A stretch of 64,000 nt of DNA from Stegostoma tigrinum (lineage: Eukaryota): assembly GCF_030684315.1 (NCBI RefSeq), contig NC_081356.1, forward strand, positions 79,468,835-79,532,834, read 5' to 3'. Shown one piece after another: positions 3,022 through 60,722 of this stretch. The notes beneath the pieces were generated by a model that saw nothing but the letters and a program-made list of their open reading frames with translations, was not told where the DNA came from and did no database searches. Made by a program: the position numbers and the translations under genes. How positions within the stretch are numbered: position 1 is the stretch's first letter; every line of letters begins with the position of its first letter.

Positions 3022-3527
3022 AGAAAAGGGAGTATGACAGGATACTGGCAGCTAACATCGAAGAAAATTTCAAAGTTTGTAGATCTCTCAACATTGGGAA
3101 AATTATAAACTGTGATCATGACAGACTAGAACTTCAAATGGACTCTGTCAGGTTGGAGGAGTAGGCAGCTAGGTGGCAGGTTAAGTTCATTGTTGAGAAG
3201 TGTGAGGTACAAAGAATATAGGGAGGTAGCATGAAATAAAGGCTCCTGTTGTAAAGTATAGGTAGAATCATAAAGACCATTTGGTACAGAAGAAGCCTCT
3301 CAAACAACGGAATCTGTACCAATGAAAAAAAATCTCAAACCTACTCTCTCTCCACTTTCTAGCACTTGGTCCATAGCCTTGAATGTTACATCTTTTCAAG
3401 TGTTCATCCAAGCACATTTTAGAGGTGAGAGATAATGGGAACTGCAGATGCTGGAGAATCCAAGATAATAAAATGTCAGGCTGGATGAACACAGCAGGCC
3501 AAGCAGCATCTCACGAGCACAAAAGCT

Positions 3528-3555
3528 GACGTTTCGGGCCTAGACCCTTCATCAG
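3528..3555 (-). ncRNA. Minimal hammerhead ribozyme core (PLE type)
   Basis: Minus strand reads CUGAUGA A GGGU CUAG GCCC GAAAC GUC. Confidence 0.75.
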
Positions 3556-3673
3556 AGAGGGGGACGGGGTGAGGGTTCTGGAATAAATAGGGAGAGAGGG
3601 GGAGGCGGACCGAAGATGGTCCGCCTCACCCTCTCTCCCTATTTATTCCCGAACCCTCACCCCATCCCCCTCT

Positions 3674-3701
3674 CTGATGAAGGGTCTAGGCCCGAAACGT
3701 C
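3674..3701 (+). ncRNA. Minimal hammerhead ribozyme core (PLE type), sense to host pre-mRNA
   Basis: ctgatga a gggt ctag gccc gaaac gtc: all core positions, 4-bp stem II, palindromic ACGU helix III. Confidence 0.75.
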
Positions 3702-4479
3702 AGCTTTTGTGCTCGTGAGATGCTGCTTGGCCTGCTGTGTTCATCCAGCCTCACATTTTATCATCTTACATTTTAGAGGTCATGAGTTTCCTGATTCAAC
3801 TTCCTTTCCATTCTTGTTACAAACCACCTTCTGGAAAAAATGTTTTCCTCAAATCCCCTCTCTACCTTCTGGCTTTCACTTTAAAATTGTGCCCCCTTGT
3901 TATTGACCCTTTGTCTAAGGGGAACAGCTAAATTCCTGAGCCATCCAGCCTCCCTTCATGGCAAAACTGCTCCATTCCAGGCAACAAGAATCTGTAGATA
4001 AGCATCCCAATATCCCTCTGTTCCTCTAAGCTTCCTGGTGTCCTGTTATTCATTGGGTACTCCCTTGTGTTGATACTACTTCCATTTCATACTTATCCAT
4101 ATTAAATTCCGTCTGCCATTGATGTACTCATTTGACCAATCTGTCTATACGCTTCTGTAACCCAAGACTTCCTTCCTCACTGTCAACCACTGCCCAATCT
4201 TGATGTTATCTACAAACTCTCTTATTATCCCTCCAATGTCTTTTCTATATCAATTTATATCATCATGAACAATAAAGGGATCGAGCACTGATATGCCAGC
4301 TTTGAGACACAAACAACCTTCCACCATCCTCTGTCTCCTACCAATAAGCCAATTTTGGATCCACCATGCCAAGTTACCCTGGATCACATGTGCTTTTACC
4401 TCTATCAGTCACCTAGGTGAGGCCTTTTAAAGGCTTTGCTGAGTCAGAGAAAGCAGTTATTAAAACACTATTCTGTAAC

Positions 4480-5290
4480 TTAAACAGGGGCATTGTGTAT
4501 CAGTGATAATGGGAACAGCAGATGCTGGAGAATCCAAGATAATAAAATGTGGAGCTGGATGAACACAGCAGGCCCAGCAGCATCTCAGGAGCACAAAAGC
4601 TGACGTTTCGGGTCTAGACCCTTCATCAGAGGAATCATCTGATGAAGGGTCTAGGCCTGAAACGTTAGCTTTTGTGCTCCTGAGATGCTACTTGGCCTGC
4701 TGTGTTCATCCAGCTCCATACGTTGCATTGTGTATCAGAACAGGTATGTTCTGCTGAACTCGTATAGGACCCTAGTTAAACCTCAGTTGGAATACTGTGT
4801 ACTGTTTTGGGCATCATACTTTAAGAAGGATATGAATGCATTGGAGAAAGTGTGGAAGAAGATTACAGGAATTGTTCAGGGATGAGAAACTTCAGTTTTG
4901 AAAATAGATTGTTGAAGTTGGGGTTGTTTTCCTTGAAGAGATTGCTGCAGAGAGATTGCATGGAAGGTTTCAAAATCATGAAGCGTCTGGGCAAAGTAGA
5001 TAGGGAAGGATCGGGAACTAGATGACACTGATTTTAAAGTAGCAAATGCAAGGTGAGAAAACCTTTTTCACACAGTGAGTATCTAGGGTTGGAATGCATG
5101 GCCTGCAAATGAGGGAGAGGCAGGTTCAATTGAGACATTAGATGATTGTTTAAGTTTAACAAAGTGAAGGATTATGGGGAAAAGGCAGCCAAATGCCTTT
5201 CAAAAGATAATGGCAAAGTGCTCGGAATGCTGAAGCAAACATGAAGGACTGAATGGCCTCCTCTGCATCACAGTAATTCTGTGATCCTGA
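4480..5290 (+). mobile_element. CR1-type LINE 3' fragment hosting a PLE insertion
   Basis: LLNSYRTLVKPQLEYCVLFWASYFKKDMNALEKV; 3' end gactgaatggcctcctctgc...taattctgtgat. Confidence 0.8.
4504..4724. mobile_element. PLE family A fold-back copy
   Basis: Inverted arms turning just past the hammerhead (cores 4602-4629 minus, 4639-4666 plus); 14-bp TSD gcattgtgtatcag (4490-4503, 4725-4738). Confidence 0.9.
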
Positions 5291-6137: not shown

Positions 6138-6227
6138 GTAGGTAACCTTTTAAATGTACTCTGATTTTGACTTTCATGCTTCATTTGTTTTAATTTGAAC
6201 TTAAAAAGGTTCTCTGTTTGGTAACAG

Positions 6228-8950: not shown

Positions 8951-9560
8951 CCAGCATCACCTCACACTTATGGTGTAGTGGGTAACATACTTGTGTGGAG
9001 AAAAGATTGGCTTGCTAACAGGAAGCAGAAAGTAGGAATAAATAGGTCCTTTTAAGGCTAGCAGGATGTCATGAGTGGTGTCTCACATGTATTGGTGCTG
9101 AGGCCTTGGCTCTTTGCAATTTATTAAAATGACTTGGATGAAGGGGCTGAAAATATAGTAGTTAAACTTATTGATGACAGGTAGCTAGGGAAGTGAGCTG
9201 TGGTGATGACATAAGGAGCGACAAAGGGAGATGCACAAGTTAAATGAGTAGGCAAGTATTTGGCAAATGGATTAATATGTGCAAAGTGTAAAATTGTCCT
9301 AGGCCTCTATCCTCTGGAGTTTAGAATAGTCAGAGGTGACTGAATTGAAACACAAGATCCTGAATGGATTTTGCAGGGTCGTTGTTGGAAGGATATTTCC
9401 TCTTCTGGGAGAATCGAGAACTAGGGGTCACCTATTTAAAACACAGATGAGGAAACTTCTTTGATAATGGGAACTGCAGATGCTGGAGAATTCCAAGATA
9501 ATAAAATGTGAGGCTGGATGAACACAGCAGGCCAAGCAGCATCTCAGGAGCACAAAAGCT

Positions 9561-9588
9561 GACGTTTCGGGCCTAGACCCTTCATCAG
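9561..9588 (-). ncRNA. Minimal hammerhead core downstream of the GIY-YIG ORF, same strand
   Basis: CUGAUGA A GGGU CUAG GCCC GAAAC GUC, ~225 nt 3' of the ORF stop. Confidence 0.78.
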
Positions 9589-9812
9589 AGAGGGGGATGG
9601 GGAGAGGGAACTGGAATAAATAGGGAGAGAGGGGGAGGCGGACCGAAGATGGAGAGTAAAGAAGATAGGTGGAGAGAGTATAGGTGGGGATGTAGGGAGG
9701 GGATAGGTCATTCCAGGGAAGACGGACAGGTCAAGGAGGTGGGATGAGGTTAGTAGGTGGATGGGGGTGCGGCTTGGGGTGGGAGGAAGGGATGGGTGAG
9801 AGGAAGAACCGG

Positions 9813-10324
9813 TTAGGGAGGCAGAGACAGGTTGGACTGGTTTTGGGATGCAGTGGGTGGGGGGGAAGAGCTGGGCTGGTTGTGTGGTGCAGTGGGGGGA
9901 GGGGATGAACTGGGCTGGTTTAGGGATGCAGTTGGGGAAGGGGAGATCTTGAAACTGGTGAAGTCCACATTGATACCATTAGGCTGCAGAGTTCCCAAGT
10001 GGAATATGAGTTGCTGTTCCTGCAACCTTCGGGTGGCATCATTGTGGCACTGCAGGAGGCCCATGATGGACATGTCATCTAAAGAATGGGAGGGGGAGTG
10101 GAAATGGTTTGCGACTGGGAAGTGCAGTTGTTTGTTGCGAACTGAGCAGAGGTGTTCTGCAAAGCGGTCTCCAAGCCTCCGCTTGGTTTCCCCAATGTAG
10201 AGGAAACCACACCGGGTACAGTGGATGCAGTATACCACATTGGCAGATGTGCAGGTGAACCTCTGCTTAATGTGGAATGTCATCATGGGGCCTGGGATAG
10301 GGGTGAGGGAGGAGGTGTGGGGGC
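9813..10324 (-). pseudogene. Truncated but open PLE GIY-YIG endonuclease frame
   Basis: FTCTSANVVYCIHCTRCGFLYIGETKRRLGDRFAEH...VANHF...EQQLIFHLGTLQPNGIN: VVY/YIG motifs with conserved R, H, E, N; no RT and no native start. Confidence 0.88.
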
Positions 10325-11299
10325 AATGGTATCAATGTGGACTTCACCACCAGTTTCAAGATCTCCCCTTCCCCAACTGCATCCCGAAACCAGCCCAGTT
10401 CGTCCCCTCCCCCCACTGCACCACACAACCAGCCCAGCTCTTCCCCCCCCCACCCACTGCATCCCAACACCAGTCCAACCTGTCTCTGCCTCCCTAACCG
10501 GTTCTTCCTCTCACCCATCCCTTCCTCCCACCCCAAGCCGCACCCCCATCCACCTACTAACCTCATCCCACCTCCTTGACCTGTCCGTCTTCCCTGGAAT
10601 GACCTATCCCCTCCCTACATCCCCACCTATACTCTCTCCACCTATCTTCTTTACTCTCCATCTTCGGTCCGCCTCCCCCTCTCTCCCTATTTATTCCAGT
10701 TCCCTCTCCCCATCCCCCTCTCTGATGAAGGGTCTAGGCCCAAAACGTCAGCTTTTGTGCTCCTGAGATGCTGCTTGGCCTGCTGTGTTCATCCAGCCTC
10801 ACATTTTATTATCTGAGGAAACTTCTTTACTCTGGGCGGTTAGTGTGTTTGGAATTTCCTTCCTCAAAAGGCTATGGGTGCTGAATCTTTAAACATTTTT
10901 AAGGCCAATTTAGACAGATTCTTGATTGCCAAGTGGATGAAAGATTATCAGGGGTATGCAGGAATGTAGAAAATAGAATGATTTTTAAAATTTTACATAT
11001 AGAATCAGTCAGTCATGTTTAGAAGCTTAAATGATTCTTGTGATGAATTCATAAAAATATATTGGCATATTATTTTTGGTGTATGAATTTAATGGTCTGT
11101 TTCTCTGCATGACTGAAAGTAAAGGATAACCCTGACGATGTTGTTACAATGTTTACTTTTCATGCGAAAAGAACAATTTAATGAAATCGGACGAGGCATT
11201 TCTCAATCAGCAAAGTCATAAGAGCCCAGTGTTGGATTAGGTATATGGGCATGGATACAGAATTGGCTCATGGGCAAGAAACAACAAGTGGGGATAAGG

Positions 11300-11500
11300 A
11301 GATAGTAGGAACCACTGATGCTGGAGTCTGAAATAAGTGTGGAGCTGGAAGGACGCAGCATGCCAGGCAGCATCAGAGGAGCAGGAAAGTTGACATTTTG
11401 GGTTTTTTTCTGAAGAAGGGTCCTGACCTGAAACGTCAGCTTTCCTGCTCCTCTGATGCTGCCTGGCCTGCCGTGTTCCTCCAGCTCCACACTGGTATCG
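11300..11500. mobile_element. PLE family A variant fold-back copy
   Basis: Inverted arms; plus-strand core ctgaaga a gggt cctg acct gaaac gtc (11410-11437); 13-bp TSD agtggggataagg (11287-11299, 11501-11513). Confidence 0.88.
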
Positions 11501-12364: not shown

Positions 12365-12585
12365 CATTCTCCCTGTATCTGCGTGGGTTTCCTCTGGGTG
12401 CTCCGGTTTCCTCCCACAGTCCAAAGATGTGTGAGCTAGGTGGATTGGCCATATTGTTCAGGGATGTGAAGGTTAGGTGGGTCATAGGTGAATGGGTTTG
12501 GGTGGGTGCTGTGAGGGTCGGTGTGGGCGTTTTGAGCCGAAGAGCCTGCTTCCACACCGTAGGATTCTATGATCCTATGATTCTA
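12365..12585 (+). mobile_element. HE1-like SINE, 5'-truncated
   Basis: V-domain cattctccctgtatctgcgtgggtttcctctgggtgctccggtttcctcccacagtcc; ttctatga tail repeats. Confidence 0.8.
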
Positions 12586-12710
12586 CTCAGTAGAATTTGT
12601 AAGAATGAGAGATGATCCACGTGAAACATATAGGATTCAAAAAGGGACTAGACAGGGTAAATTCTGAGAGGATGTCTCTTCTCATAGAGTCTGGGACCAG
12701 AGGGCTTTGA

Positions 12711-13012
12711 GGTTAGCACTGCTGTCTCACAGCGCCAGGGACCCAGGTTCAATTGCACCTTTGGGCGACTGTGTGGAGTTTACACATTTTCTGTGTGGGT
12801 TTCTGCCGGGTGCTCCAGTTTCCTCCCACGTGGAAAGAGTTATGTGGATTAGCCACGCTAAATTGCCCATAGTGTCCTTGCATTGGACATGGGTAATGCA
12901 GGATTACAGGTAAAGGGTACGGAATGGCTCTAGGTGGGATACTCATCAGAGGGGCGGTGTGGACTTGTGGGCCAAATGGCCTGTTTCCACAATGTAGGGA
13001 TTCTATTATTCT
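12711..13012 (+). mobile_element. HE1-like SINE
   Basis: ggttagcactgctgtctcacagcgccagggacccaggttcaatt head, V-domain, gggccaaatggcctgtttcc tail. Confidence 0.82.
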
Positions 13013-14094
13013 CAGCCTAATGGGATACCAGTTTAAAACTGGGAGAAGGAGGAATTTATTCTCTCATAGGGTTGAGAATCTTGGACCTCCTTGTGACAGA
13101 GATACGGGGCAGATTCTTGTACACTTAAGGCTGAGAGATTCTTGAACTGTAGCAGAATCCAGGGTTACGGGGAAAAGGCAGGAAAATGGACTTAAGAATT
13201 GTCAGAGCAGGCTTGAGGGGCCAAACAGCCTACTCATGTTCCTATTACTACTTGTTATATGGCCTTAATTGCTCTGAAATCTGGCCACCTTCTCTGGGAT
13301 TGCACCCACCCTTCAAACTAAAGAACTCCCTCCCATTTAGGGATGTGATCACCCTCTTCTCCGTTGCTGGGATCAAGGATCAAACAACTGCCAATTCTTT
13401 TCCTCTAGTTATGACTTACTTCATGGTGCACCCTGCTTGACTGGAATCCAATTTCTGGGTGGGATCCTGTCAAACATAAATGCACACTGTTAAACTCCAC
13501 AATAAACATGAATACTCAAGACTTCCAGTTGAAACTCTACACTGTCCCCTTGGAAACCTGCCACTGCCAATGTTGGGTCACTGATCACAACGTGTAAATT
13601 AAAGGATCTGCCCTCTAAACAAATTACTGTGGAATAAATATCAATCAGGGGCTCAATTTCAGATGGGAGGATATTCTTTGAACTGTGAACAGGAGAGCTT
13701 GAGAGTGCGCTCAGCCTCCACCGCATTGACGTAAAACAATACAATAGGCAATACAGCTCTCGGAATTTAATTAAACTAAGCTCATTGTGATCAACATTGA
13801 ATGGAGGTAATCTCAGTGCTATGAATGTGGGGCTTTACTAGGCAATTATGTTTTAAATATCTCCTTTAAGTTAAAGTTGAATAGCATGATTGAGTGGGGA
13901 TGTGGTGGCGAGATTCAATCCTCCCTGGATTCCGGCCCAACTGATTCTGTTGTCATGGCCAAAGATACCCAAATCAGAAAAGGCAATTAACTGTTCTCAT
14001 ACCTTGACACAAAAAAAGTTTGCTGTTTGGGGATGGATACTGATACAGATACATCTCCCCATGGGGTAAGACAGTGCGTGTGTGCGTACTGCAA

Positions 14095-14263
14095 GAACTG
14101 TGTTGCTGTAAATCAGGAACAAAAACAGTTGCTGGAAAAGCTCAGCAGGGCTGGCAGCATCTGTGAAGAAAAAAGAGCTAATGTTTGACCTAAAACATTA
14201 AGCCTGTTTTTATTCACAGATGCCTCCAGACCTGCTGAGCTTTTCTAGCAACTTAGTTTTTGT
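14095..14263. mobile_element. PLE family B fold-back copy (old)
   Basis: gttgctggaaaagctcagcagggctggcagcatctgtgaa ... ttcacagatgcctccagacctgctgagcttttctagcaac inverted arms. Confidence 0.7.
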
Positions 14264-14402
14264 GGGTGCTGGTAAGAATTGGTTCTGTTTTCAAAGAGAA
14301 GGGAGAGGACTGACAGAACACTTAGAGTTTTAACGGGTGTGGGGAGTGATTTTTGTGGAGCCCGCAAGAGCAGGAAAAGTGGTTATTTATGGAATAAATC
14401 CA

Positions 14403-14724: not shown

Positions 14725-16500
14725 ATAAGACCAGAAGATACAGGAGTAGTATTCAGCCACTGAGCCCTTTGGGTCTGCTACACCATTTGATCGTGCCTCA
14801 TGTGTTTCCCTACCCCATTCTCCTGCCTTCTCCCTGTAACCTTTGATCCCTTTACTAATCAAGAACCTATCTGTCTGCCTTAAATATACTCAATGACTTG
14901 GCCTCCACAGCTCTCTGCAGCAATGAGTTCCACAGATTCACTGTTCTGTGACTGCAGAAATTCATCTCAGTTCTAAAGGGTCACCCCTTCACTCCGAGGC
15001 TGAGCCTGCAGGACTTAGTCTCCCCTACTATTGGAAACATCTTCTCCATGTCAACTCTATCTAGGTCTCTCACTATCCTGTAAGTTTCAATGAGACCTTC
15101 TCTAAACTCTATTGAGTAGAGACCCAGAGTCCTCAACCACTCCTCACATGACAAAATTTTCATTCCCGGGATCATTCTTGTGAACTTCCTCTGGATCCCC
15201 TCCAATGCGAGCACATCCTTCCTTTGATATGGAACCCAAAACTGCTCTCGGTAATCTAAATGCGGTCTGACCAGAGCCTTATACATCTTCAGCACTTCAT
15301 CCCTGAGCTTGTACTCCATCCCTCTCGAAACGACTGCAAGCATTGCATTTGTTTTCTTAACTGCCAGCTGAACCTGCATGTAAACCTAACAGACTCCAGA
15401 ATTAGGACTCCTGAGTCTTTGTGCTTTACATTTCCCCATTTAGAAAATAGTCTGTCTTAGCTCTTCCTACCAAAGTGCATAACTTTACACTTTCAATATT
15501 GTATTCAATTTGCCACTTTCTTGCACACTCTTGTGGTCTCTCCAAGACCTCCTCCAGCCTCCATGCGTCTTCAACACTACCTGTCCCTCCACCTATCTTT
15601 GTGTCATCTGCAAATTTAACAATAGCCTTAATCCTTTTGTCCAGATTATTAATGTTATAATGTGAATAGTAGTGGTCCCAGCACTGGCCATTATGGAACT
15701 CCACTAATCACTGGCTACCATCCTGAAAAAAGTCCCTTTATCTCCATTCTCTGTCTTCTGCCATTTAGCCAATTCTCTACCCATGCTAGTACCTTTGCCC
15801 TAATACCGTGGGCTGTTATTTAGCAGCCTCCGGTGCAGCACATTGTCAAAGGCCTTCTGAAAATCCGGATAGATCACATCCACTGGTTGTCCTTTGTCTG
15901 ACTTGCTCATTACCTCCTCAAAGAATTCTAACAGATGTGTCACACATCACCACCTCTTCACAAAGCTATGCTGACTTAGCCTTATTTATCATTCACTTCC
16001 AAGTACTCCGCAATCTCGTTTTTAACAAAGTATCTAAAATCTTAGCAATGACTAAGGTCGAGCTAGCTGGCCTATAATTTCCTGTTTCTGCCACCCTCCT
16101 TGGTAAACGTAGTGTTATTTAATTTCCAGTGCTCTGGAACTCTCCCAGACTCCTGTGATTCCTGAAATATCACCTCCAATGCCTCCACAATCCCTTCAGA
16201 ACTCTGGGGGTGTAGTCCATCTGGGTTGGGTGATTTATCCACCTTTAGACATTTCATCTTTCCCAGCGCCTTCTCCTTCGTGATGGCCACTGCACTTAGC
16301 TCTGCCTCCTGACTCTGAAGTTCTGGTATGCTGCTGGTATCTTCCATGTAAGCACTGATACAAAGTACCTATTCAGTTCCTCTGACACTTTTGTTCCCCA
16401 TTACTATCCCAATCTCATTCCAGTGGTCTCATGTCCACTCTTGTGTCTCTGACCTTTTACATGTCTTTTAAAAAAAATCTCTTGCAATCTTCTTTTGTAT
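14725..16500 (-). mobile_element. CR1 LINE ORF2 RT, frameshifted
   Basis: Minus ORFs: LKVDKSPNPDGLHP, KFADDTKIGG, MYKALVRPHLDYREQFW, IQRKFTRMIPGM. Confidence 0.9.
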
Positions 16501-18741
16501 ACTACTAGCTAGCTGACCCTTGGTATAAAACTTTTGTGCAGTTACGTCTTAAAAATTGAGAGAACATCAGCAGTACACAAGAATCCCATAGCTCCCAGTT
16601 TCCAATTGTTTATGCATGGTTTGCTGCAGTCTTGTACACTTGTGTTTTAAGGTCAGTAGCTTTCCTTACTTAAATTTTGGCACAAGTGAGGGGAGCAGGA
16701 GAATGGCAGCGTGCAAGAAGCCTCAGGACTAGCAGGGTTAGTGTGTGCGTCAGTGGTGAGGGAAGTAGGGGTTGTAGATTGTGTCAGAATGGAGCAGGGG
16801 CCTAAGGAAAGACTGGCAGCCGCATTGGATGTATGGAAGAATGAAAATGGAAAGGGCCTGACTTCCTTGATATTTTTTGGGTCAGTGATTGGTGGAAACC
16901 GTCAGTCAAGGTAAGAAACTTTAAGAACTAAAGGGTGACCTCAGTACTGTCCAAATGTGTGCCCATTTCAGGATGTTGACCAAGTCCTCTCAGATCACCT
17001 ACAGTTTTTCAATTGTCCCTGCTTAAAGTGATTTTGGACAATATCCTTTCCACTGCAAAGATGAGAGACCAGCTAGGTTTGCAAGTTCAGCCATGTCCCA
17101 CAAATTATGCTAGTATATTTAGCTCTTTAACTAAACTAGCCTCAATAAATAATGTTGATGCTCATGCAAACAAAAGTGAAGTCAATAATAAGTGCCACTG
17201 TTGTGCTTTGAAATCTTAATGAAAATGAAGTTGGGCAGGTAAGTTTTTTTTGATTTGGATGCAGAACAGGAGGCTCTTTTATAGCCTGCTGCACTGTCAT
17301 CAAACAGCAGGTTCCACCTGTGGAATTCCACGTGTTTCCTCTGCACACTGCTAGAATTTTAAATTTAACTTGTAATCTGATGAGAAATGGCAGAAAGCAA
17401 GAGAGCAAATATGATTTTCAATTTAACCGCCAGGAATAACATACAACTGATAGCATTTCCTCTGGGCAGCTGGCGAGATGGGCCTTGCTGGTGAAAGTTA
17501 ATTTTACAATACTCGGACTGAGTGGAATAACCTTCAAAGGGCACTGGAAGATTTAACTTGCTGTGGCAGAGAGAAATGAGCCTGCTGCAAGGCTTGGGAG
17601 TAACTGGGGGCTGATTCGTTAATGCTATATATCTATCAGAAATGTGGCGTAAAGTAAAAATATTTTGCGTGGCATATTTGAACTGTTATTGATTCAAAAG
17701 TACTTTTTAATTGGTATGATCTGTTAAGTTATGAGTCTGTGTCGATTTAATTTGCTGTTACAGTAAAATTTAAAACAGTTATTTCCAACGGTTATTTGGA
17801 AATGCACCATTTTTTTTGGAAAATGTTTTCTCAGTTCTGCATTTCTAAGGTGAGATTCTGCTCAGATGTCCATCAGTGAAATGGGGAGCTGTACCTCCAT
17901 TCTGATCCTTTATTTGTTGTATAACTGTTCAAAGAAGGCAAAAACAGCCCCGTTCATAGTTCTGAAATTGAAAGTTTCTGACAGCATTTTCTCAGCTGCT
18001 GAGATGAGTGATATTAGGGTGCTGGGAGGGTAGGTGAACATAAGCTTCAGAGATGGACTGGAGTACCCAGCATCTCACATTTTTCTTTAATTATTCACAC
18101 TGTTCATGACCTGGTAACCATGATGTGAATAAACTGGCTTCCAAGGGCCAAATCTTTTGCAGACTTGGACCAACTCCAGAGATCTCTTAAAAATTCTGGA
18201 AAGGATCCAAATGCAGATACACTCCATGCATTTCCATAAGCCACCATTTTTTACAGGCAGGAGAAAGGGGCAGGCATAAATCACACAGGGAGGAAACACC
18301 AATGCAATGACCAATGTCACTAAAATCAGATGTTGGGTACTGCTGTTCATTCTGAAGCTTATTTTCCATTAAAATATATTTAGAATCATCTGGAGGAGTT
18401 TTTTCACAATTATTGGTTAAGGCAGTCAAGCTACACAAAGCCGCATTGTTTAAGTGTCACGAGTTGACAACGATATTTTATTTTTCACATCATTTCAAGT
18501 TGCAGTTGACTCTCCCACCAAGGTTTCTAATTAAAATACCTGTAATGGGATTGGGTATCGGCCTTTGTTTGAGAGCCACATTTTTCATTGAGTTTTGCAA
18601 ATTGAATTTCACTGCGCTTTCAGCAAATGAAATCAATCCTTTATCTGTTCTGTGACTTGGTACATAAAGAGGAATTCTTATTCAGGACAACAATATTAAA
18701 GTTGAATGATTTCAGACTTACAGCTGACTAGATTATGTTGG

Positions 18742-18957
18742 AGATAACAAGGCATAGAGCTGGGTGAACACAGCAGGCCAAGCAACATCGTAGGAGTAGG
18801 AAAGCTGATGTTTCAGGCCTAGACCCTTCATCTGATGAAGGGTCTAGGCCCGAAACGTCAGCTTTCCTGCTCCTAAGATGCTGCTTGGCCTGCTGTGTTC
18901 ATCCAGCTCTATGCCTTGTTATCTTGGATTCTCCAGCATCTGCAGTTCCCATTATCT
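18742..18957. mobile_element. PLE family A fold-back copy centred on the hammerhead
   Basis: cccttcatc-t-gatgaaggg axis; 14-bp TSD ctagattat(g/a)ttgg (18728-18741, 18958-18971). Confidence 0.9.
18832..18859 (+). ncRNA. Minimal hammerhead core, sense to host pre-mRNA
   Basis: ctgatga a gggt ctag gccc gaaac gtc. Confidence 0.75.
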
Positions 18958-19899
18958 CTAGATTATATTGGCAACATTAGTTTTTATTAAATATTAACAA
19001 TGTTTGCCTTTGGTTTCTTGTATATTATGCATGTACTTTTGTTTCCATTTTGTTTGTGCTTTATTTGCCTTTGAATGTGACTTTTGGCCACCTTGCTTTC
19101 TTCTATCTACCCCTTTTTTACCAAATCAGCTAAAGGGTTATTGATAATAGGTGAATGTAATTGTACGAGGAAAAGCATTTTTGGCAACATTAAAAATCAG
19201 AGGATCATCAAGACTATGCTGAGCCATTGAAAGATGATCAACGGCATGTTAGTAAATATTAATCAGTTTTCAGTAACATTGTTAAAATCAAAATTGCTGA
19301 GGATAGTGAATTAGATGCCTAAAATACCATGAATAGATCTGGCCCAAGTCACATCATCATGAAGGATCCTACAGAAGTGCAACAACATTGGGTTTGGATG
19401 GGATGCTCCAACGGGCGGTGTGGACTTGTTGGGCCAAAGGGCGTGATTCCACACTGTAGGGAATCTAATCTAATATGTAATCCTCTTGCTCATATCTTTT
19501 AATAAAGATTAGGTTCGGAAGTGTTTCTTCACATTGCGATCATATTAATGGTTCCAACATTTAAAATGTTTGAAAAATAGAACCAGATAGCTATAGATCC
19601 ATTACCTTGATTTTATTAGATGTTGGTGTTAAGAAGTGTAAGTATTGGTGATCTCTATGACCATTTAGAATAGCATTAATGAATACCTAATAGTAATTTG
19701 CTGTGAAATTTAAGTTAGTTTGAGCCCATCTTTAGGTGATCTTCACTACAATACATCTTTCTTGTGAGTCATTAGCCATTTTCTTAATCTGCCATTGTTT
19801 CCCAACTATCTTTTCTACTATTTTTCCTTTCCCAGTCTACTCCTTTCCAGCTAACTCTGCCCTCTCATTTCTTTGTGTTTGCCCCTATTTAGGTTTAGC

Positions 19900-37443: not shown

Positions 37444-37464
37444 ATATCTGCACCATAACATAAG

Positions 37465-40690: not shown

Positions 40691-40708
40691 TGAATTTGCT
40701 ACAGCTCA

Positions 40709-43054: not shown

Positions 43055-45127
43055 GTAAACCTGTCTTCTACTCCAAGATTATTGGATAAATCTGTATAAC
43101 AGCACATATTCCGCAACTACAATTCTCAAACATCCAAATCCAAAATCCAAAATTCAGATTCGGATTGAAATACTGAATTAACATTCTCTTTGCTTTTCAA
43201 TTTAGCATTGACATTTCTCAAATGTTGCATTCCTAACTTTTTTTCAGGTTTCTTCAGGGGTTATCTCGAATGTAAACAAAATAAAGCTGTACCAGCTTTA
43301 AGGGTGTTACTCACCGCTCCCATGTTCGAGTGGATAAACACTGAAAGATCTAAATTTTCCAAGTGGAAATCTATATACTGCAGAAATTACTCTCATAAGT
43401 TGTGGTTGTATTCCTGAAAAGCCCAGAAAATGAAACGATTTTAAGTGAACCACAAGTTCCCATAGAAAGCAATGTTCAAGTCAGCATTAGGTTCATTCGA
43501 CCAATTTCAAACCTGGAAAGAAAAACAATGCACAACCCTGTGTATTCCTAAGTGAAATAACTGCAAAAGAAAGTACATCAGTATCTATCAAAGAAATGTA
43601 ATACAGAACATCCTGACCCCAGTACAATACAGTGTTGAAATAATTTATGGAAATATTCTGAACTATCTTTTTGGATTGAATAGCGTCCATCTAGTGGTGG
43701 AGGTTAGTCAGTGCAGGAAGTTCCTAAGTTCATGCACTGACCAACCTCTACCCATAGATGGGGCCGTTTAGTATGAGTTCAGAACAACAGCGGAAGGAAA
43801 TAGTTTTAATGATGAAAAGAGTAGTGTAAGGAAAAATGAATGTAGAGGGAGACAATGAAGGCTAGTAGGGAAGAAGTAAAGCTAGATGGCTGAGTAAGTG
43901 ACAATGAATTTTGGTTCAAGTGGCAATTCTGCCACTTCAAAGGGGGCTGGAGGTGGTTTAACTAAAGTGTACTGCAACAAATAAACATTTCAGAATGAGA
44001 GGTGAATGGGAAAGGATGAAAGTAGGGATCAAAAGGCTGTCCTGTAGTGAGACCAGCAGCAGTCTGACATTATGGACTGTATCGTAATTCAAATGCAGGA
44101 CAAGAAGCTGATTGAGTAGAACTAGTGAATATTTTTAGTTTTTAAAGTAAAAGTAAAGTCTTTAGTTTGTGCTTCGGTCTCTGGGGTTTTTCCCTTTTTC
44201 TTTTAAAAATAGCCAGTTAAGTAGAAGATGGACATTGGTCTCTTTTAAAAATTGTTATGGTGGAGTATAAAGAGCAAGGAATCTTGAGTAATTAATTTAT
44301 AAGTCAAATCGGAATGATAGTGGTGGCATGCTGGTGATATATTGTTGCTGTAGCATGTGGAAGCTGCTGGAGACCAGTGTGATTCAGAGCAAATATATCT
44401 GTCATAAGTGTTACAGTTCAAGGAACTTTTGATTCAAGATGAAGGTTGAGCTATAGACGATCATATCAGGGAGGAAATATATCAGAAATATTACCTGGAC
44501 ACTTTGCTCTAGTGTGCAGTTATAACCCTCACACTTTGGAGTTCAAATTTGATCTGTGATCAGGGACAAGAGGGTGTGACTACAAATGAGGCAGCTATAG
44601 AGACCAAGAGATTGTGTTTGACCAGTCTCTCTCCTGCAATTATCCAACAGTTATGAGGTTTGTGCAAGCTGTGCAGGTGAGAGCAAGGACCGCAGGGAGG
44701 CTGAGCAATCTGTCAACAGCATCTTGGTACAGGGACTCATTCACACAACAGAAGGCAATAGGAATAAAGTTGTGGTAGGGACAGTAGAATTAGGGGAATA
44801 CTTACAGTTCTGTGCAGCCGACAGTGGAAGTTCCAAAGTGTGAGTTATTTGCCTGATGTCAGGGTTAAGGACACCACATCAGGGCTGGAGAACAACCTGG
44901 AGGGGGTGGAAGTAATAATGATATTAATAGGACAAGAAAAGAAGTTCTGCTAAACAATTTGAACATTCGGACCTAAATTAGGTAGCCAAGACTCAAAGGT
45001 AATAATGTCTGGATTACTACCTGAGCCACAGGCAAACTGACATAGGGTCAATATAATCAGGGAATTAAAGGCTGCCCCAAGGATTGGGGTGGATGGAATG
45101 ATGTTCAGTTCATGGGGTGCTACCAGC

Positions 45128-45226
45128 AGCAAAACAAGGTGCTGGAGAAACTCAACAGGCCTGGCAGCATCTGTGCAGAAAAAAGTAACAGTAACGTTCC
45201 AAGTTCAGTAAACTTTGTCTGAACTG
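45128..45226 (-). mobile_element. PLE family B fragment
   Basis: gctggagaaactcaacaggcctggcagcatctgtg...taacgttcc, similar to 14095 left arm. Confidence 0.55.
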
Positions 45227-47258: not shown

Positions 47259-47395
47259 GTTCTGAGGAAGGGTCACAGCGCCTGAAACTTTAACTCTGAT
47301 TTTTCTTCACAGATGCTGTCAGACCTGCTGAACTTTTCCAGCAACTTCTGTTTTTGTTCCTGTTTTATGGTATCCGCAGTTCTTTACGCTTTTAA
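47259..47395 (+). mobile_element. PLE family B copy starting at a degenerate hammerhead
   Basis: gtt-ctgagga agggtcacagcgcct gaaac ttta, then ttcacagatgctgtcagacctgctgaacttttccagcaac and ccgcagttct tail. Confidence 0.7.
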
Positions 47396-47414
47396 TGACA
47401 GATAAAGATTTGGT

Positions 47415-47709
47415 ATTAGATTAGATTCCCTACAATGTGGAAACAGGCCCTTTGACCCAACAAGTCCACTCAGACCCATCCTCCCATAACCCACACACCC
47501 CTGAATACTATGGGCAATTTAGCATGGCCGATCCACCTAGCCTGCACATCTTTGGACTGTGGGAGGAAACCGGAGCACCCAGAGAAAACCCATGCAGACA
47601 TGAGGAGAATTTGCAAACTCCACACAGACAGTTACCAGAGGCTGGCATTGAACCCAGGTCCCTGACACTGTGAGGCTGCAGTGCTAGCCACTGAGCCACC
47701 GTGCCGCCC
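47415..47709 (-). mobile_element. Well-preserved HE1-like V-SINE
   Basis: Minus strand GGGCGGCACGGTGGCTCAGTGGCTAGCACTGCAGCCTCACAG head, V-domain, (TCTAA)n tail. Confidence 0.88.
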
Positions 47710-49622: not shown

Positions 49623-49753
49623 GAGATAGTAGGAACTGCCGATGCTGGAGAATCTGAGATAACACGGTGTGAAGCTGGATGAACACAGCAGGCCAAGCAG
49701 CATCAGAGAAGCAGGAAAGCTTGATGTTTTGGGTCGGGACCCTTCATCAGAAA
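49623..49753 (-). mobile_element. PLE family A variant tail ending just beyond the hammerhead
   Basis: gagatagtaggaactgccgatgctgg...gggtcgggacccttcatcagaaaa; short flanking atggcat duplication. Confidence 0.85.
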
Positions 49754-51284
49754 AGAATGGCATCCTTTGTTGACATAAATGACCGTGATTTTTCACATTA
49801 GTGTTATTGGAAATGGATTGATGTTTGTCTTATTGTAAATCTGTCATTACAAGTTGTGAACATCCCTTTCATTCCAAGACCTTCCCAGCCAATGTGCTAG
49901 CACACTGTCTGTAATTATGGCCGTCTCAATACTAATAAAATATATATAGCTTGTAATGTTATTAAAATAAATAAATGTGAGATAATTAATATGAATGAAA
50001 ATATATAGTCAGTAATATTATGAAATACATGAATATTAGATAAATAAGAACATAATCCAAATTCTTTAGTGCTGGTCGTCTTTGTTTCATTCCATCGTAA
50101 CAGCCATTTTAGATTATATGTTGGGCCAAAGTCAAGAAGATGCGTCAAATCTTTAAAAGTATTACCGATGTAACAGATAACCAAGTGAGCTTTAGCATAA
50201 ACATTTGACTGTTACATGAGCAAGTAGGCAAGTACCATTTAATTCGTATTGGGATGGTTGGGGTGGTTCTTAATCCCATAATCTATGACTCAGAGGTGAG
50301 TATGCCATCACTGCACATAGGCCAATAGTAGTATGTGCAGTTACTTTTAAATATCTTATTTCAATGCTGAACTCAAGGCACAGTTGCACCCACAACTTAC
50401 CCTTATTTAGTGAATAGATTTTATATCTCTTCATGTGGCTTGAACCATTTTTCAAGACCATCAATTATTGCCGGAATCAAGTTTTTGAAGCGAGCAGACA
50501 GACTGCTGGATCAGACGATTCATTTGATGCTGAAAGGAAGGAAGGAAATACCTAACGATTGCTGTACATTGCTTTGAATATTCTCCAAGCATCTCTCACT
50601 GCAATGTGAGTGGTAGTCAGCCTGGGCCAGACTGTTACCACTCCTGGCTGAAGGATGATGCTGCATGGAAGCGAATAGACAATGTATGGGATAATAATGG
50701 TATTTAAACAGAATCCAGATTAAATTTAACAATTAAGGATACAAATTATTCCAAGTTTCTACATGCAAACTTGCCCTCAGTACAATCTAGTAAATTAAAT
50801 TTGCTGTGATAATGAAAGAATAAAGCTGCAACAATACAAATACAGTATCAGAAGATATGTTATTACTTTCAGTAGCTGCAGAACATCAATCAATGTGAAT
50901 CTCTGAGCACATGACTCAGCTGGAAGTGCCACGATTAGTCATTTACAATAGGAATGACTTGGAGTCCAGTCTTCCTATTTGATGGAGTTTAAATATGGTG
51001 GTTACAGAATAAATGATGGTTACAGAATAACCTGAATGATCACATGCGTTGTTTTGGTTTTATTTTTCTGTAAACAGGCTAGTGAACTCAACAGAGTGAG
51101 ACAAAGGCTTTACGTTGCCTATAAGTTGATGTCCTGTGGCATTGCACACGCAGTCATCTGAAGTGTAGCCTTCAAATAAAACAGGGTTAGGTAAGAAGAA
51201 AAAAATGACCCAGGGTGCACAGGAGCAGGACATTAAAAAAAAATTCTCAGCGAGTTTATGGCAGAAAGATCAGCATTTTTCTTT

Positions 51285-54225: not shown

Positions 54226-54426
54226 AGTATTAACCTATATTTATATAGTGTTTTTTTTAAAGCACATTACAGCTAATCAAGTGCTTTTGAAGGGAAGCAG
54301 CTGTTATGATGTGAAAAAGCATCAGCCAAATTATGCGCAGCAAAGTGCCACAAACAGTATTGTGATTATTACAGATAATCTGTTTTGGTGATATTGGTTT
54401 ATGCAAACTTAACATTGGTCAGATCA

Positions 54427-54930
54427 GTTTGTAGATTTTTTCGCCAGGCTGGTGTGTTTGATTGCAGACCTTTCGTCGCCCTGCTGAGTAACATTGTCAG
54501 TGCGCCTCCAGTGAAGCAATGGTGTTCTGTCCTGCTTGCAATTTATATGGCTTGGTTTGCTGGGGTGGCTGGTATTCCTTCCAGTTTTGTCTCTCAGTGG
54601 TTTGTATATCGGGTCCAGTTCAATGTGTTTGTTGATGGAGCTCTGGTTGGAATGTCAGGCTTCCAGGAATTCCCTGGCATGTGTCTTCAACAAATATACT
54701 GAACTGGACCCAATATACAAACCACTGAAAAACAAAACTGGAAGTAATGCCAACCACTCCAGCAATCAAAGGATATAAATAACAACCGGAATAGAACACT
54801 AAAACCTGGCCGGAGGCGCACTGACGATGTTACCTAGCAGGATGACGAAATGTCTGCAATCAAACGCACAAGCTCAGCGAGGAGGTCTATAATCTCATCC
54901 ACAACCCGAACTACAAATCTCCTCAAAAAC
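54427..54930. mobile_element. Second PLE lineage (family C, Poseidon-like) fold-back copy
   Basis: Arms ~54446-54634 and ~54687-54878 inverted; minus strand encodes HAREFLEA*HSNQSSINKHIELDPIYKPL (GIY-YIG C-terminus); 8-bp TSD tcagatca (54419-54426, 54931-54938). Confidence 0.82.
54821..54854 (+). ncRNA. Degenerate hammerhead core of PLE family C
   Basis: gca-ctgacga t gttacc tagca ggatgac gaaat gtc-tgc; gca/tgc can form helix I; mirror copy at 54467-54500 on minus. Confidence 0.62.
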
Positions 54931-55349: not shown

Positions 55350-55471
55350 GTAGGAACTAGCATTAGAAATCAAATCATATCTTCTCTCTCCATTGAAATT
55401 ACCAGTTGTTCTTTTAAATAGTCACCAGGTGACTAAAATGATTTGAAAACTCTACTTCTGATACTGTGTGA

Positions 55472-55895
55472 TAATAAAATGTGAGGCTGGATGAACACAG
55501 CAGGCCCAGCAGCATCTCAAGAGCACAAAAGCTGACGTTTCGGGCCAAGACCCTTCATCAGAGAGGGGGATGAGGTGAGGGTTCTGGAATAAATAGGGAG
55601 AGGGGGAGGTGGACCGAAGATGGAGAGAAAAGAAGATAGGTGGGGAGGAGAGTATAGGTGGGGAGGTAGGAAGGGGATAGGTCAGTCCAGGGAAGACGGA
55701 CAGGTCAAGGAGGTGGGATGAGGTTAGTAGGTAGGGAATGGAGGTGCGGCTTGGGGTGGGAGGAAGGGATGGGTGAGAGGAAGAACAGGTTAGGGAGGCA
55801 GAGACAGGCTGGACTGGTTTTGGGATGCAGTGGGTGGAGGGGAAGAGCTGGGCTGGTTGTGGGGTGCAGTGGGGGGAGGGGATGAACTGGGCTGG
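55472..55895 (-). mobile_element. PLE family A copy ~120 nt downstream of a coding exon
   Basis: Collinear with 9497-9920; core 55534-55561; 10-bp TSD tactgtgtga (55462-55471, 55896-55905). Confidence 0.92.
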
Positions 55896-56169
55896 TACTG
55901 TGTGACCTTGGATTGCATTTGGCACAACAGCAGTTTCTTGTTTCAAATTTTCATGACAAGTGCCTTCTTTCAGAGGAATAACATTGAACTCTTGTACACG
56001 TACTTTTCAATTCAGATCAGTTTTATAGACCAACCTAGGGACAAATTTCAACCAAAACAAGGGAGAAGGTGGGTTGGGGGTTGGAGGCAGTGGATGGGAG
56101 AGGGGTGTGGGCGAGGGTTTATACTCATTGGATTTCTGGTTTCAACCCAGTCACTCTTGACTTTAATGG

Positions 56170-56830: not shown

Positions 56831-57056
56831 CAATTTCTAACCTACGAATGCAAATTGTTTTCATGCAATTAACTACATCGTACTTAAAACAAAAGCTTCT
56901 TCTCACTGAGGACCTCATTAGTTGTGGTGCAGTCGTACTGTTCCTATCACTGGATTGGGAAGCCTGGGTTCAATCTAAGTTCCTCCAGCGGTGCGTAACA
57001 GTATCTCTGAACAGGCTGAATTAAAAAAATATAAAAACCAAGCACTCACTAATGGT

Positions 57057-57142
57057 AATAAAATGTGAGGCTGGATGAACACAGCAGGCCAAGCAGCATC
57101 TCAGGAGCACAAAAGCTGACGTTTCGGGCCGAGACCCTTTAT
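57057..57142 (-). mobile_element. 86-bp PLE family A copy ending at the hammerhead
   Basis: 14-bp TSD cactcactaatggt (57043-57056, 57143-57156). Confidence 0.9.
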
Positions 57143-57623
57143 CACTCACTAATGGTTTTCCCCTGCCACTGTAAACCAAGTAGGTCCTTAGACTCAGGCA
57201 AAGAAAGAACAGGTGGCACCAATCTTCCCATACACAAGCTGGTGCTGGTTAGCATCACAACACATACAACATAATCTACCCCCAACATCCAAGCTGTAAC
57301 ACCCAACCCTAAGATCAGCCCATGCCCCCAGTGCTGATGTGCCTGCCCTCATAATTACATAGCTGTTTTACCTCCACAACCGGTAGAGGGCATCTCGAGG
57401 TAGAGTTTCAGCACAACTTTCTGATTCACTGACTCCAGATTGAACTTGCAAGTAAAAATCTAGCTCATTGTGGCTTTTTCTCCCCACTGCCAACAAAACA
57501 AAAAATACTCCTTTGAACCCAGAAAAACATCAGCATGCAAACTGCCAGAGATGCTAAAATACTGAATGCACCTCTCAATATTATCTTTAATTATCTAATC
57601 ACATACTGAATTTCTTTTTCCAG

Positions 57624-57737: not shown

Positions 57738-58326
57738 GTAAGATTTTGTTATATTTTTTAAAAGCAGTAGATTCTGTTGCGGTTTTGACCAAAGCCTGAC
57801 TTCCCTGAACCATTCCCATTCCCTGTTTAGACACATCCAGACTTCATGTCAACTGAAATCATCTCACCTGTTGTACTCCTGGGTCAGGTCAAGAACAAGC
57901 TGCTTCTCCCCAATGCCCATCTGATATGTAGCGCTGTACTCAAAAACAGCACAAGAAAGTAGTGTTAATAATGTATTTCAGAAAATAAATGCAACCTCAA
58001 GAAGGTGGCCCGGGTTAGCTTGTGAATCTGGTGGTGTTCTTATATTTAGAAGCACAGAATGAGAAAAACGGCTTGGATCGGATAATATTACACTCTGTTT
58101 CTATTAAGGGTCATGGTGAGCAGCTGCTTTCTAAAAATTAGTTTAGTCACATTGACACTAACAGTAGTTTGGGAACAGTCGCACTTCTGACTCCATGTTT
58201 TCTCTCTGAAGAGAAAAAGGGAATAAATTACAGAAAAGGGAGGAAACAAAAAAACCTTCTTGGGGAAAACGATGTTTTAAAACGTTTACTATGTTTGTCC
58301 GATAATTACATATTTACAAAATCATA

Positions 58327-58852
58327 GATAATGGGAACTGCAGATGCTGGAGATTCCAAGATAATAAAATGTGAGGCTGGATGAACACAGCAGGCCAAGC
58401 AGCATCTCAGGAGCACAAAAGCTGACGTTTCGGGCCTAGACCCTTCATCAGAGAGGGGGATGGGGGGAGGGAACTGGAATAAATAGGGAGAGAGGGGGAG
58501 GCGGACCGAAGATGGAGAGTAAAGAAGATAGGTGGAGAGGGTGTAGGTGGGGAGGTAGGGAGGGGATAGGTCAGTCCAGGGAAGACGGACAGGTCAAGGA
58601 GGTGGGATGAGGTTAGTAGGTAGCTGGGGGTGCGGCTTGGGGTGGGAGGAAGGGATGGGTGAGAGGAAGAACCGGTTAGGGAGGCAGAGACAGGTTGGAC
58701 TGGTTTTGGGATGCAGTGGGTGGGGGGGAAGAGCTGGGCTGGTTGTGTGGTGCAGTGGGGGGAGGGGATGAACTGGGCTGGTTGAGGGATGCAGTGGGGG
58801 AAGGGGAGATTTTGAAACTGGTGAAGTCCACATTGATACCATATGGCTGCAG
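58327..58852 (-). mobile_element. 5'-truncated PLE family A copy without inverted arm
   Basis: Near identical to 9463-9989; core 58424-58451; 15-bp TSD atttacaaaatcata (58312-58326, 58853-58867). Confidence 0.93.
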
Positions 58853-59259
58853 ATTTACAAAATCATAACGTTTGAGTGTTAACCATGACAGCCCCAGGAA
58901 TTTTGCATGCCATTCATTATGCAGCTTCCTTCTTCCTTGTGTGCAGATTGAACTACGGGTTAAAACTTGGCAACGATCACAGAAATATGGCTCTAGGTAA
59001 CACTACACCGGCTCAATGAATAAGTACAAAATTAATGACCGTTCTTAGAAATATTGAATCGAAATGAGACTATTATACGGTGCTGTTCTTTCTCAGTTTC
59101 GTAGTTCGCAGTGTGAAATTGTTCTATTTGGGGACTGCAAGCATTTCATGTTACAGGGTAATTAGAACAACTTTACAAACATTTCTTGTGCCTTGCTGTT
59201 GAAACCCGAATGAGCAAGTGTTGATGACAATGAAATAGACAAATATGGTGGTCCAATGT

Positions 59260-59590
59260 TTTTAATTCTATATTTGGGATGTGGACATGCTCCCAAGCCC
59301 AGCATTTAATTGGCTTCCCTATATGGCTTTGAACTGAATACTTGTACCTTGCCAGGCCATTTCATTGGGACCAGGTAAAGCCTGCAGATTACCTTCTCTA
59401 AAGGGCATGAGTAAACCAGATGGGTTTTTACAACAGTTTATAGTTTCGTGGTCATTATTATTGAGACAGGATTTATTAACTGAATGTTAATTCTACCAGC
59501 AGCCATTGGTGGGATTTGGATCCACATCTCCTAAGTGTTAGCCTGAACCTTTAGATTGCTATTCCTGTGTCATTAACATAAGCCACCATC
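59260..59590 (-). mobile_element. Deu-domain SINE, decayed
   Basis: ctaaagggcatgagtaaaccagatgggttttt; gtgggatttgga. Confidence 0.62.
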
Positions 59591-60388
59591 TGGCCACTAT
59601 TATTGCTATCATTATTGGTGATTATTCTAGCAGGCAAGGTTGTGACTTCAAGTTCTACTGTGGCATCCTGAACTTTAAGTCTTATTGTTTGTGGAGTTGG
59701 TATGAGGAAGATAATGATGAAAGCTATCATTCTGTTTTAAAACCACAAGTGTTTTACTAATATCATTCAAAGAAGGCAATCGACTGTATTGTTTGGCCTA
59801 TTTGTGACTTGGGTATCTTAACTGCAATATGCTGCTGCTCCCCTTATTTTATGAGAACCTGTCTTTCAATAGAGCCACAAGAAATAATTAAAGCTCATAA
59901 AATAGGTGATGGTTGATGGAGTTAGGCTCTGCATAGAGTCTGAATCAAGGGGTCTGGTGGAAAAATCATTTAAAAAATGGCTTTCAACATTTTGAAGACT
60001 CAGGCCCATAGCTGATCCATTTCTGCCAAACCTAACACAGCAAGACGTTCTTTGTACCTCCCTGTAAAGGAACAATTCAGCTTCTTTGGCCCTATTATTT
60101 CCACATAATACAGCAAGTCTTTCCACGTTAAGTATTGATCCAATTCTCATTTAAATTTTAATACTGAACCTACATCAACCATACTTTTCAGGCAGTGCAA
60201 TCCAGATTATAACAACTCAATGTGTATATTTTTAAAGAAAAATTCTCATGACACCTCTGGTTCTTTTACAATTACATTAAATCTTTATCCTTGGACTACT
60301 GGTCTTTTTAGCATGGGAAAGAGTTCCTGTTTATTTACTCTGTTAGAAACCCTTCATTTTGAACATCAGTATTGAATCTCCTTTCATT

Positions 60389-60722
60389 GATAACAGTGTG
60401 GAGCTGGAGGAGGACAGCAGGCCAGGCAGCATCAGAGGAGCAGGAATATTGATATTTTGGGTCGGGGCCCTTCTTCAGAAATGGGGGAGGGGGAAGGGAG
60501 CTCAGAAATAAATAGAGAGACCTCCAACCTATCCACTCCTCTCATTGCCTGTAACTTCCCACTGGCACTCATCTATCACCATCCCCCCTACCTTCCCCAG
60601 CCCCACTCCTCCTCTCTCTCTTTCAACTTTCCTGCTTCTCTGATGCTGCCTGGCCAGCTGTGTTCCTCCACTTCTCACTGTGTTATCTCTGACTCCAGCA
60701 TCAGCAGTTCTTACTATCTCTG
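60389..60722. mobile_element. PLE family A variant fold-back copy inside a CR1 remnant
   Basis: Inverted arms gataacagtgtggagctgg... / ...cactgtgttatc plus cagcagttcttactatctc tail; flanking tgaatctccttt duplication (60373-60384, 60725-60736). Confidence 0.8.

Follow-up and report, generated by a model that had tools for sequence, protein, structure and literature searches.

The genome of the zebra shark (Stegostoma tigrinum) is strewn with short copies of a Penelope-like element (PLE), here family A, whose pseudo-long terminal repeat (pLTR) carries a minimal hammerhead ribozyme (min-HHR) motif; a stretch of 64,000 nucleotides (contig NC_081356.1, positions 79,468,835 to 79,532,834; the window hereafter) holds 13 of their insertions. 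Our findings suggest that the short copies are probably run-off cDNAs of an RNA that was not cleaved and whose 5' end would lie 1-6 nt ahead of the motif, and that they come from one autonomous PLE, with cleaved templates forming at most a small minority.

Results

Positions are counted from C3 of CUGAUGA (position 0), with predicted cleavage falling between +27 and +28. Evenly spaced 10-kb stretches adding up to 1.4 Mb yielded 301 arms (single copies, alone or paired within an insertion), of which 114 are young, that is, at least 90% identical and away from stretch edges. As many as 78 of these begin at -7 or later. Among the 67 young arms reaching +1, 31 have their 5' end within the 9 nt from -7 to +1, and the next 92 nt take the ends of only 5 of the remaining 36; against the end rate over +31 to +60, this pile-up has a p of about 1e-20, and the end rate falls about 30-fold beyond -7. 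Older arms pile up likewise (56/119), as do those of a related family B at the same edge (34/46), and solo copies with plain target-site duplication (TSD) flanks also begin there (10 listed). Upstream, family A has TATTTATT at -34 and the two family B copies examined have TATAAA, one at -33 and the other at -30, so to our minds the copy ends favour transcription starting just before helix I, about 30 nt past a TATA-like box. The pile-up at the 5' edge of the motif would then likely arise because the copied RNA starts there uncut and, together with the paucity of ends at the cleavage site (see below), it argues for a template that is likely uncleaved RNA starting at the hammerhead. A splice acceptor at -7 to +1 was considered and rejected, as upstream flanks are unique or inverted element sequence with no shared exon seen.

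The original prediction had expected ends at GUC^AGC, and these proved rare in genomic copies and not clearly above controls. Junctions, defined as three non-consensus bases plus an anchor and counted genome-wide at these sites including six control positions, number 5,659 at -2, 1,126 at +14, 190 at +27, 827 at +28, 407 at +29, 492 at +30, 335 at +43 and 410 at +44; normalised for base composition they become, in the same order, about 12,700, 2,850, 1,080, 2,950, 1,030, 1,100, 750 and 1,460, the ratios being rough as anchors differ among -2, +14, +43, +44 and the remaining positions. After normalisation +28 equals +14, doubles +44 and reaches a quarter of -2. Ends at the cleavage site hence make up at most about 1.6% of the 186,685 genomic occurrences of the downstream 22-mer, no more than the matched control +14. 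Inspection of flanks at 30 loci for +28 and 10 each for +27, +29 and +30 confirmed true junctions in 25/30 (+28), 10/10 (+29), 5/10 (+30) and about 6/10 (+27).

That the ribozyme is active in vivo, with a minor copy class (up to about 1-1.6%) recording RNA cut at GUC^AGC, is compatible with our explanation and, although unlikely, deserves to be taken seriously. In its favour, normalised +28 stands above +27, +29, +30 and the AG-matched +44, solo copies at L196, L208 and L210 have a TSD abutting AGC, joins to sense sequence number 6 at +28 compared to 1 of about 21 true control junctions, and the core is invariant over families A, B and C, whose helices differ yet stay paired. However, the equally AG-matched control +14 (2,850) is level with +28, about a third of 100 listed +28 prefixes (CAA, CAG, CCA; hand count) fit shared-word joins with the opposite arm, the end rate over +26 to +30 (3/91 in the 1.4-Mb sample) is the same as over +31 to +60, and solo copies are similar at +28 (5/30 loci) and +29 (4/10 loci). 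At L185, L186, L197, L199, L200 and L203 downstream sense sequence is joined to +28, often with one extra A, a pattern suggestive of a template switch at an RNA end.

Anatomically, the motif conforms to a min-HHR: it has the core and an unpaired A, its helix II is 4 bp long and its whole helix III is the palindrome ACGU, as had been claimed from the sequence. Helix I comprises 2 bp, U-A and C-G (U-G in an older subfamily), the third position being U x C, and no longer helix I was found in the family A motif and its folds. In predicted structures, a rival hairpin (CUGAUG/CGUCAG) that would bury the hammerhead core is 7.8 kcal/mol more stable (-11.4 versus -3.6 kcal/mol for the hammerhead-like form), helix I has a computed pair probability of 0.0 in five of five segments folded, and for a dimer the hammerhead-like fold is estimated at -5.5 versus -38.0 kcal/mol for the best one. 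Folding thus predicts a motif that mostly adopts the rival hairpin and cleaves rarely, perhaps only as a protein-assisted dimer, and self-cleavage is probably rare. Since D. virilis also has a 2-bp helix I and the anole motif depends on protein, a poor fold is no proof of a dead motif.

The 3' ends of the 114 young arms fall at +86 to +100 in 54, at +122 to +140 in 47 and elsewhere in 13, and the gap between the two classes is the known 30-40-bp PLE tail. Adjacent head-to-head pairs hold 48 of the 114; a tailed arm is combined with an untailed one in 21 of the 24 sample pairs, and all 24 have a TSD-like best match of 6-17 bp, those of 6-7 bp being near chance. Over 91 pairs drawn from all loci rather than solely from the even sample, paired arms differ at 30/580 diagnostic sites (5.2%) compared to 31.8% in shuffled pairs.

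Such pairs might stem from fold-back self-priming of a single cDNA rather than from two priming events, which we doubt without discarding it: rare variants are common to both arms, junctions are often palindromic and self-priming has been proposed for rotifer elements in the part of PMC3846280 covered. Against this, the untailed arm extends at least 10 nt further 5' than the tailed one in 4 of the 24 pairs, and by more than 600 nt in L257 and L267. As neither arm contains the other in these four, two priming events are favoured over fold-back, although one-sided deletion of a palindrome centre could mimic non-nested arms.

As for the source of these copies, RT (reverse transcriptase), a CX4CxxC linker and GIY-YIG in one open reading frame (ORF), together with a pLTR carrying the motif, bear out the Penelope-like identity proposed from the window alone. 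Searching the genome with window frame 9813-10331 gave 150 scored matches, all at 96-100% identity, and long open frames of 945 and 873 aa at genomic matches (L031 and L032), in which Pfam finds GIY-YIG in both and RVT_1 in L032 only, below curated cut-offs. L031 contains ADKG, FLRYIDD, CNRRKCYTC (residue 740) and VVYCIHCTRCGFLYIGET; CNRRKCYTC represents the CX2-5CxxC linker before GIY-YIG, a feature also found in Nematis. Hence, judged by its coding sequence, the element is an autonomous endonuclease-positive (EN+) Penelope-like retrotransposon with a Neptune-type linker. Of 7,991 candidates scored, 771 are homologous at E<=1e-50, and PF00078/PF28514/PF26215 occur in the majority of the 120 listed; among the matches listed, Stegostoma tigrinum (95%) and Chiloscyllium punctatum (72-76%) supply the closest named proteins.

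A full-length copy runs pLTR, motif, tail, ATG (+166/167), RT, CX4CxxC, GIY-YIG, 3' untranslated region (UTR) and motif. The tandem pLTR is seen as a sense motif upstream in 11 of 30 loci picked by the 5' part of the ORF, 10 of them at -594 to -612, and L110 is a full-length copy beginning at -4. In the tail region of the full-length tandem copy at L109 lie about 350 bp of AT-rich, unrelated sequence, besides a short duplication of the tail. Recent activity, suspected in the original prediction, is evident from arms of one insertion that differ at as few as 3/745 and 0/257 sites and from 5 of 5 tandem copies checked, whose frames stay open from the ATG through all 715 codons that the fetched sequence covers. 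Its description of the short pieces as non-autonomous did not survive: the pLTR end of the autonomous element gave rise to them as 5'-truncated or run-off copies, and window copy 9462-10331 continues directly into the GIY-YIG domain.

The motif is indeed present in very high copy number. Its exact pattern, CTGA[AT]GAAGGGT-N4-[AG]CC[CT]GAAACGTC, has 127,105 matches in the 3.2-Gb genome and none when reversed, and with a relaxed min-HHR descriptor 1.264 Mb yield 94 hits, and reversed sequence none, which excludes chance. From the 1.4-Mb sample we extrapolate to about 690,000 arms genome-wide, about 260,000 of them young; at 90% identity or more, family A makes up 3.3% of a 1-Mb sample. With 8 exact motifs in 64 kb the window is about three times as dense as random samples (38 in 1 Mb). 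An Rfam covariance scan of the window returned 38 matches at E<=1 with no hammerhead family among them; these are microRNA-like hairpins scoring below gathering, which we discount because they arise from inverted arms.

Retained pairing in stem II had been taken as a sign of selection on structure, a view that holds only between source lineages and families, since among genomic copies decay is neutral. Young arms carry G12>A in 15/89, C11.1>T (leaving a G-U pair) in 10/89 and G16.2>A in 11/91, and in older arms CpG changes at C11.1 and G12 amount to 42/151 and 36/154. Because G12 and C11.1 belong to one CpG and G12 is mutated at least as often, the G-U stem variant reflects CpG decay; we likewise reject selection on the core at the level of copies, given that the catalytic G12 decays at a CpG shared with a stem base. 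Among subfamilies, the non-CpG variants of the motif that are common affect N7, loop 2, 11.4 (U-G/U-A) and 2.2 (U-G/C-G) but not core bases, so that 10.4-11.4 pairs as U-G or U-A and 2.2-1.2 as U-G or C-G between source lineages. Helix I is CU/AG in family A, AGUU/AACU in B, and UCA/UGA or GCA/UGC in an unrelated family C, and N7 varies. Variants that spare the core, and families B and C that keep it with unrelated paired helices, argue for selection on source elements, albeit core conservation across families is partly by construction as the descriptor demands the core.

Within the window, the 20 family A arms form 13 insertions, in line with the estimate of about 13: seven head-to-head pairs and six solos, one of them a 23-bp match. 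TSDs of 9-16 bp flank 10 of the 13. An exact pattern search gives precisely the eight motifs first reported; their loops are CUAG, CUUG and CCUG, and the other two loops described, CUCG (57053-57144) and CCCG (60388-60520), occur in mutated copies. The longest copy, 9462-10331 (minus strand), comprises the GIY-YIG end of the ORF, the 3' UTR, the motif (9561-9588) and the tail. Its open frame of 172 aa (9813-10331, minus) has a C-terminal GIY-YIG domain (Pfam PF01541, 22.9 bits, cut-off 22.6), its TATTTATT at -34 from C3 (9615-9622, minus) is a putative promoter box, and its optional tail of about 34 nt (9462-9496, minus) lies between the two 3' ends at +92 and +126. Together with an inverted 5'-truncated, untailed arm on the plus strand (10325-10817; -391 to +92; motif with G12>A) it forms an insertion spanning 9462-10817 with a 15-bp TSD. 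At the ORF end a 39-bp unit is tandemly repeated about three times (9833-9944, 10364-10477, 55808-55896 and 58696-58807). The public predicted protein P0006 matches 9547-10322 (minus) across the 3' UTR and the motif and, as the match spans the repeat, gene annotation has made a repeat into an 'uncharacterized protein'.

Further head-to-head pairs occupy 3428-3767 (13-bp TSD), where a tailed minus arm (3428-3619; -64 to +127) and a plus arm (3618-3767; -56 to +93) carry exact motifs at 3528-3555 (minus) and 3674-3701 (plus); 4497-4725 (14-bp TSD), where arms start at -2/-1 and the motif is exact at 4602-4629 (minus) and mutated in the partner; 11299-11499 (13-bp TSD), an older-subfamily pair with its motif at 11410-11437 (plus), N7=A and loop CCUG; 18741-18959 (9-bp TSD), both arms aligning from -1, with a motif at 18832-18859 (plus); 34862-35058 (16-bp TSD), where 0 to +92 and +26 to +130 are joined at a short shared word; and 60388-60724 (12-bp TSD), an old pair of about 75% identity. 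Solo arms on the minus strand lie at 40700-40821 (+14 to +129; a TSD was looked for and none found), 49623-49757 (older, -1 to +125; 7-bp candidate TSD), 55467-55896 (-331 to +91; motif 55534-55561, loop CUUG; 10-bp TSD), 57053-57144 (+1 to +89, of the run-off class; 14-bp TSD) and 58321-58856 (about -401 to +130, tailed; motif 58424-58451; 15-bp TSD), and a small decayed fragment on the plus strand at 52998-53039 matches +53 to +75.

Family B is older (71 arms in 1.4 Mb); its helix I is 4 bp long (AGUU/AACU), its triplet is GUU and TATAAA stands near -33. In the window it occurs at 14088-14274, 45121-45209 and 47259-47384, the last a plus-strand copy that aligns from -3 and bears a mutated min-HHR-like motif at 47262. 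Family C, unrelated to A, is represented by an inverted pair at 54422-54899 with a motif at 54821 (plus), a 3-bp helix I (GCA/UGC) and a 6-bp helix II. Found also at L055, L081 and L132, it is a second Penelope-like family with a better-formed min-HHR, whose helix I covaries from UCA/UGA to GCA/UGC. Its frame reads AREFLEA*HSNQSSINKHIELDPIYKPL, the end of which we take to resemble that of Poseidon-type GIY-YIG domains. In three of its arms (L161:6266-6324, L162:8684-8742 and L087:5132-5187) the start, at +17 to +21, is preceded by a similar stretch (TTTTTCAAATAAAA); a common target, splicing or an inverted arm of greater length could account for it. Decayed LINE (long interspersed nuclear element)-like 3' fragments at 14725-15385, 28396-29088, 37460-37979 and 41485-41880 have no significant Pfam match, their frames presumably resembling CR1-type RT C-termini. 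Another interspersed repeat at 2688-3021, 12366-13012 and 47414-47699 is, by size and spread, like a short interspersed nuclear element (SINE), and we assume that it resembles tRNA-derived SINEs of sharks.

Discussion

Our proposal that short copies are run-off products of an uncut RNA has to be weighed against several points that speak against it. The start site is inferred from genomic copy ends; a clear extra G of the cap type is present in just one of 10 solo run-off copies that have a TSD; TATTTATT is a weak match to a TATA box and, in the part of PMC2377424 covered, D. virilis Penelope uses a TATA-less internal promoter. Alignment ends of older subfamilies can be pulled towards -1 because their upstream sequence differs from the reference. 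After normalisation, +28 has about 2.7-2.9 times the count of each of its three neighbours, and at 6 of the 25 junctions confirmed there the copy jumps to downstream sense element sequence, so a share of the template may have been cleaved. Folding energies leave out tertiary contacts and protein, and placement with Neptune is tentative, the linker being common to Neptune and Nematis. As for flanks at -2 junctions, 53 of 100 listed end in G (hand count), many being palindromic centres.

Alternatively, the 5' pile-up may mark an RT stall or recombination hot spot at a purine-poor tract or hairpin instead of the RNA start. Consistent with this, a stable hairpin covers 0 to +29, a long pyrimidine tract lies upstream and many junctions are palindromic, GAG|CTCTGATG alone accounting for 22 of 100 listed (hand count). 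We nevertheless find it rather improbable, as a hairpin would halt the enzyme at its 3' base (+30) and not once copied, and as neither the sharp fall in end rate beyond -7 nor the plainly flanked solo copies that start there fit a stall. Moreover, family B has a different upstream sequence and the same pile-up at a similar distance from TATAAA. Very unlikely, finally, is that the short pieces are an independent, transcribed and self-amplifying non-autonomous family (SINE- or retrozyme-like), for even though most arms are short and the covered part of bioRxiv 10.64898/2026.07.22.740005 has retrozymes proposed as pLTR-derived, none of the 114 young arms in the 1.4-Mb sample is adjacent head to tail with another, the unit forms no tandem array in the 64-kb window, the ragged 5' ends grade into longer copies, short and long arms within one insertion have common variants and run-off copies are without the upstream TATA-like box.

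If copied RNA does start uncut at the motif, a replication cycle may be envisaged in which the TATA-like box at -34 would set the RNA start and the element protein would nick both target strands and prime internally at two 3' sites, as the anole element does in vitro. Priming in the 5' pLTR would give run-off copies of 90-135 nt and priming in the 3' pLTR longer ones; pairs of cDNAs would then be fused head to head where they have short words in common. Once inserted, copies decay neutrally, and the motif is maintained by selection on source elements. The joint version of this, in which RNA starts at helix I about 30 nt after the TATA box in two families, the 90-135-nt cDNAs are strong-stop-like, a dimeric enzyme primes both strands and the GUC^A spike reflects about 1% of templates cleaved in vivo, seems unlikely to hold in all its parts.

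How does this compare with known systems? Earlier work covers the PLE identity, the tail, the inverted arms and the min-HHR alike (PMC4209133, PMC8557442, PMC3846280, PMC11167929), and for the sources below other than PMC11167929, our comparisons refer to the portions covered. As in Neptune EN+ PLEs (Craig et al. 2021, PMC8557442), we find a single ORF with RT and C-terminal GIY-YIG, the CX2-5CxxC linker, a partial-tandem pLTR, an inverted 5'-truncated copy, a 30-40-bp tail at one end and a hammerhead motif in the pLTR; what sets the shark family apart is its abundance. With metazoan PLE min-HHRs (Cervera and de la Pena 2014, PMC4209133) it shares core boxes, the unpaired base before helix II, G10.1-C11.1, the palindromic 15.2-16.2, dispersed truncated copies and opposite-strand pairs 100-700 bp apart. 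It differs in helix I (2 bp, as in D. virilis, versus 4-5 bp in Schistosoma), in helix II (4 bp versus 7-8 bp) and in copies of the motif (127,105 exact versus about 4,000 in coelacanth and about 9,000 in Xenopus), and no shark is among the min-HHR hosts in the text and supplements of PMC4209133 covered. At about 40 exact motifs per Mb, density is above the vertebrate figures in the literature compared.

The anole element PAc (Frangieh et al. 2024, PMC11167929) primes internally at two sites bounding the tail, with both strands cut and extended; unprocessed RNA is its dominant substrate, no RNA-seq reads end at the cleavage site, the ribozyme is dispensable for insertion in vitro and the motif cleaves only with protein. 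In contrast to the shark element, whose ATG lies at +166, after the tail, PAc belongs to the Poseidon clade and its ORF begins inside the hammerhead; the main text describes no pile-up of genomic 5' ends at the 5' edge of the hammerhead. Non-LTR retrozymes of axolotl and other animals (PMC7229834; bioRxiv 10.64898/2026.07.22.740005) resemble the shark family in total motif count (126,247 in axolotl versus 127,105), type I motifs with a weak helix III and the pLTR link, yet the shark genome is about nine times smaller than that of axolotl (3.2 versus 28.2 Gb), and retrozymes are tandem arrays yielding circular RNA whereas shark copies are solo or head to head. Among the vertebrates of the bioRxiv study, Neptune and Poseidon are the only clades given, and one chondrichthyan has both retrozymes and PLEs.

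Neither this shark family nor run-off copies or start sites at a hammerhead's edge are described in the literature searched, albeit the family may be catalogued in Repbase or Dfam or listed in supplements outside the search; the main text of the zebra shark genome paper has no occurrence of 'penelope' or 'ribozyme', and in vivo ribozyme cleavage with a metazoan PLE is not shown in the literature covered. What appears to be new is a probable origin of the short copies as run-offs from the transcription start, along with a ceiling on the fraction of templates that had been cleaved.

With hundreds of thousands of young insertions, questions about PLE replication and hammerhead function become testable from junction positions counted in a single genome. 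In genomes of this sort, motif tallies report dead copies of a few source elements, not working ribozymes. If the start-site reading, more likely than not when taken alone, is true, the origin of many short hammerhead-bearing copies would be explained, as would the very short helix I, because the RNA begins there. Should the joint reading also prove true, the shark genome would preserve the replication cycle of Penelope elements as a fossil record that can be read.

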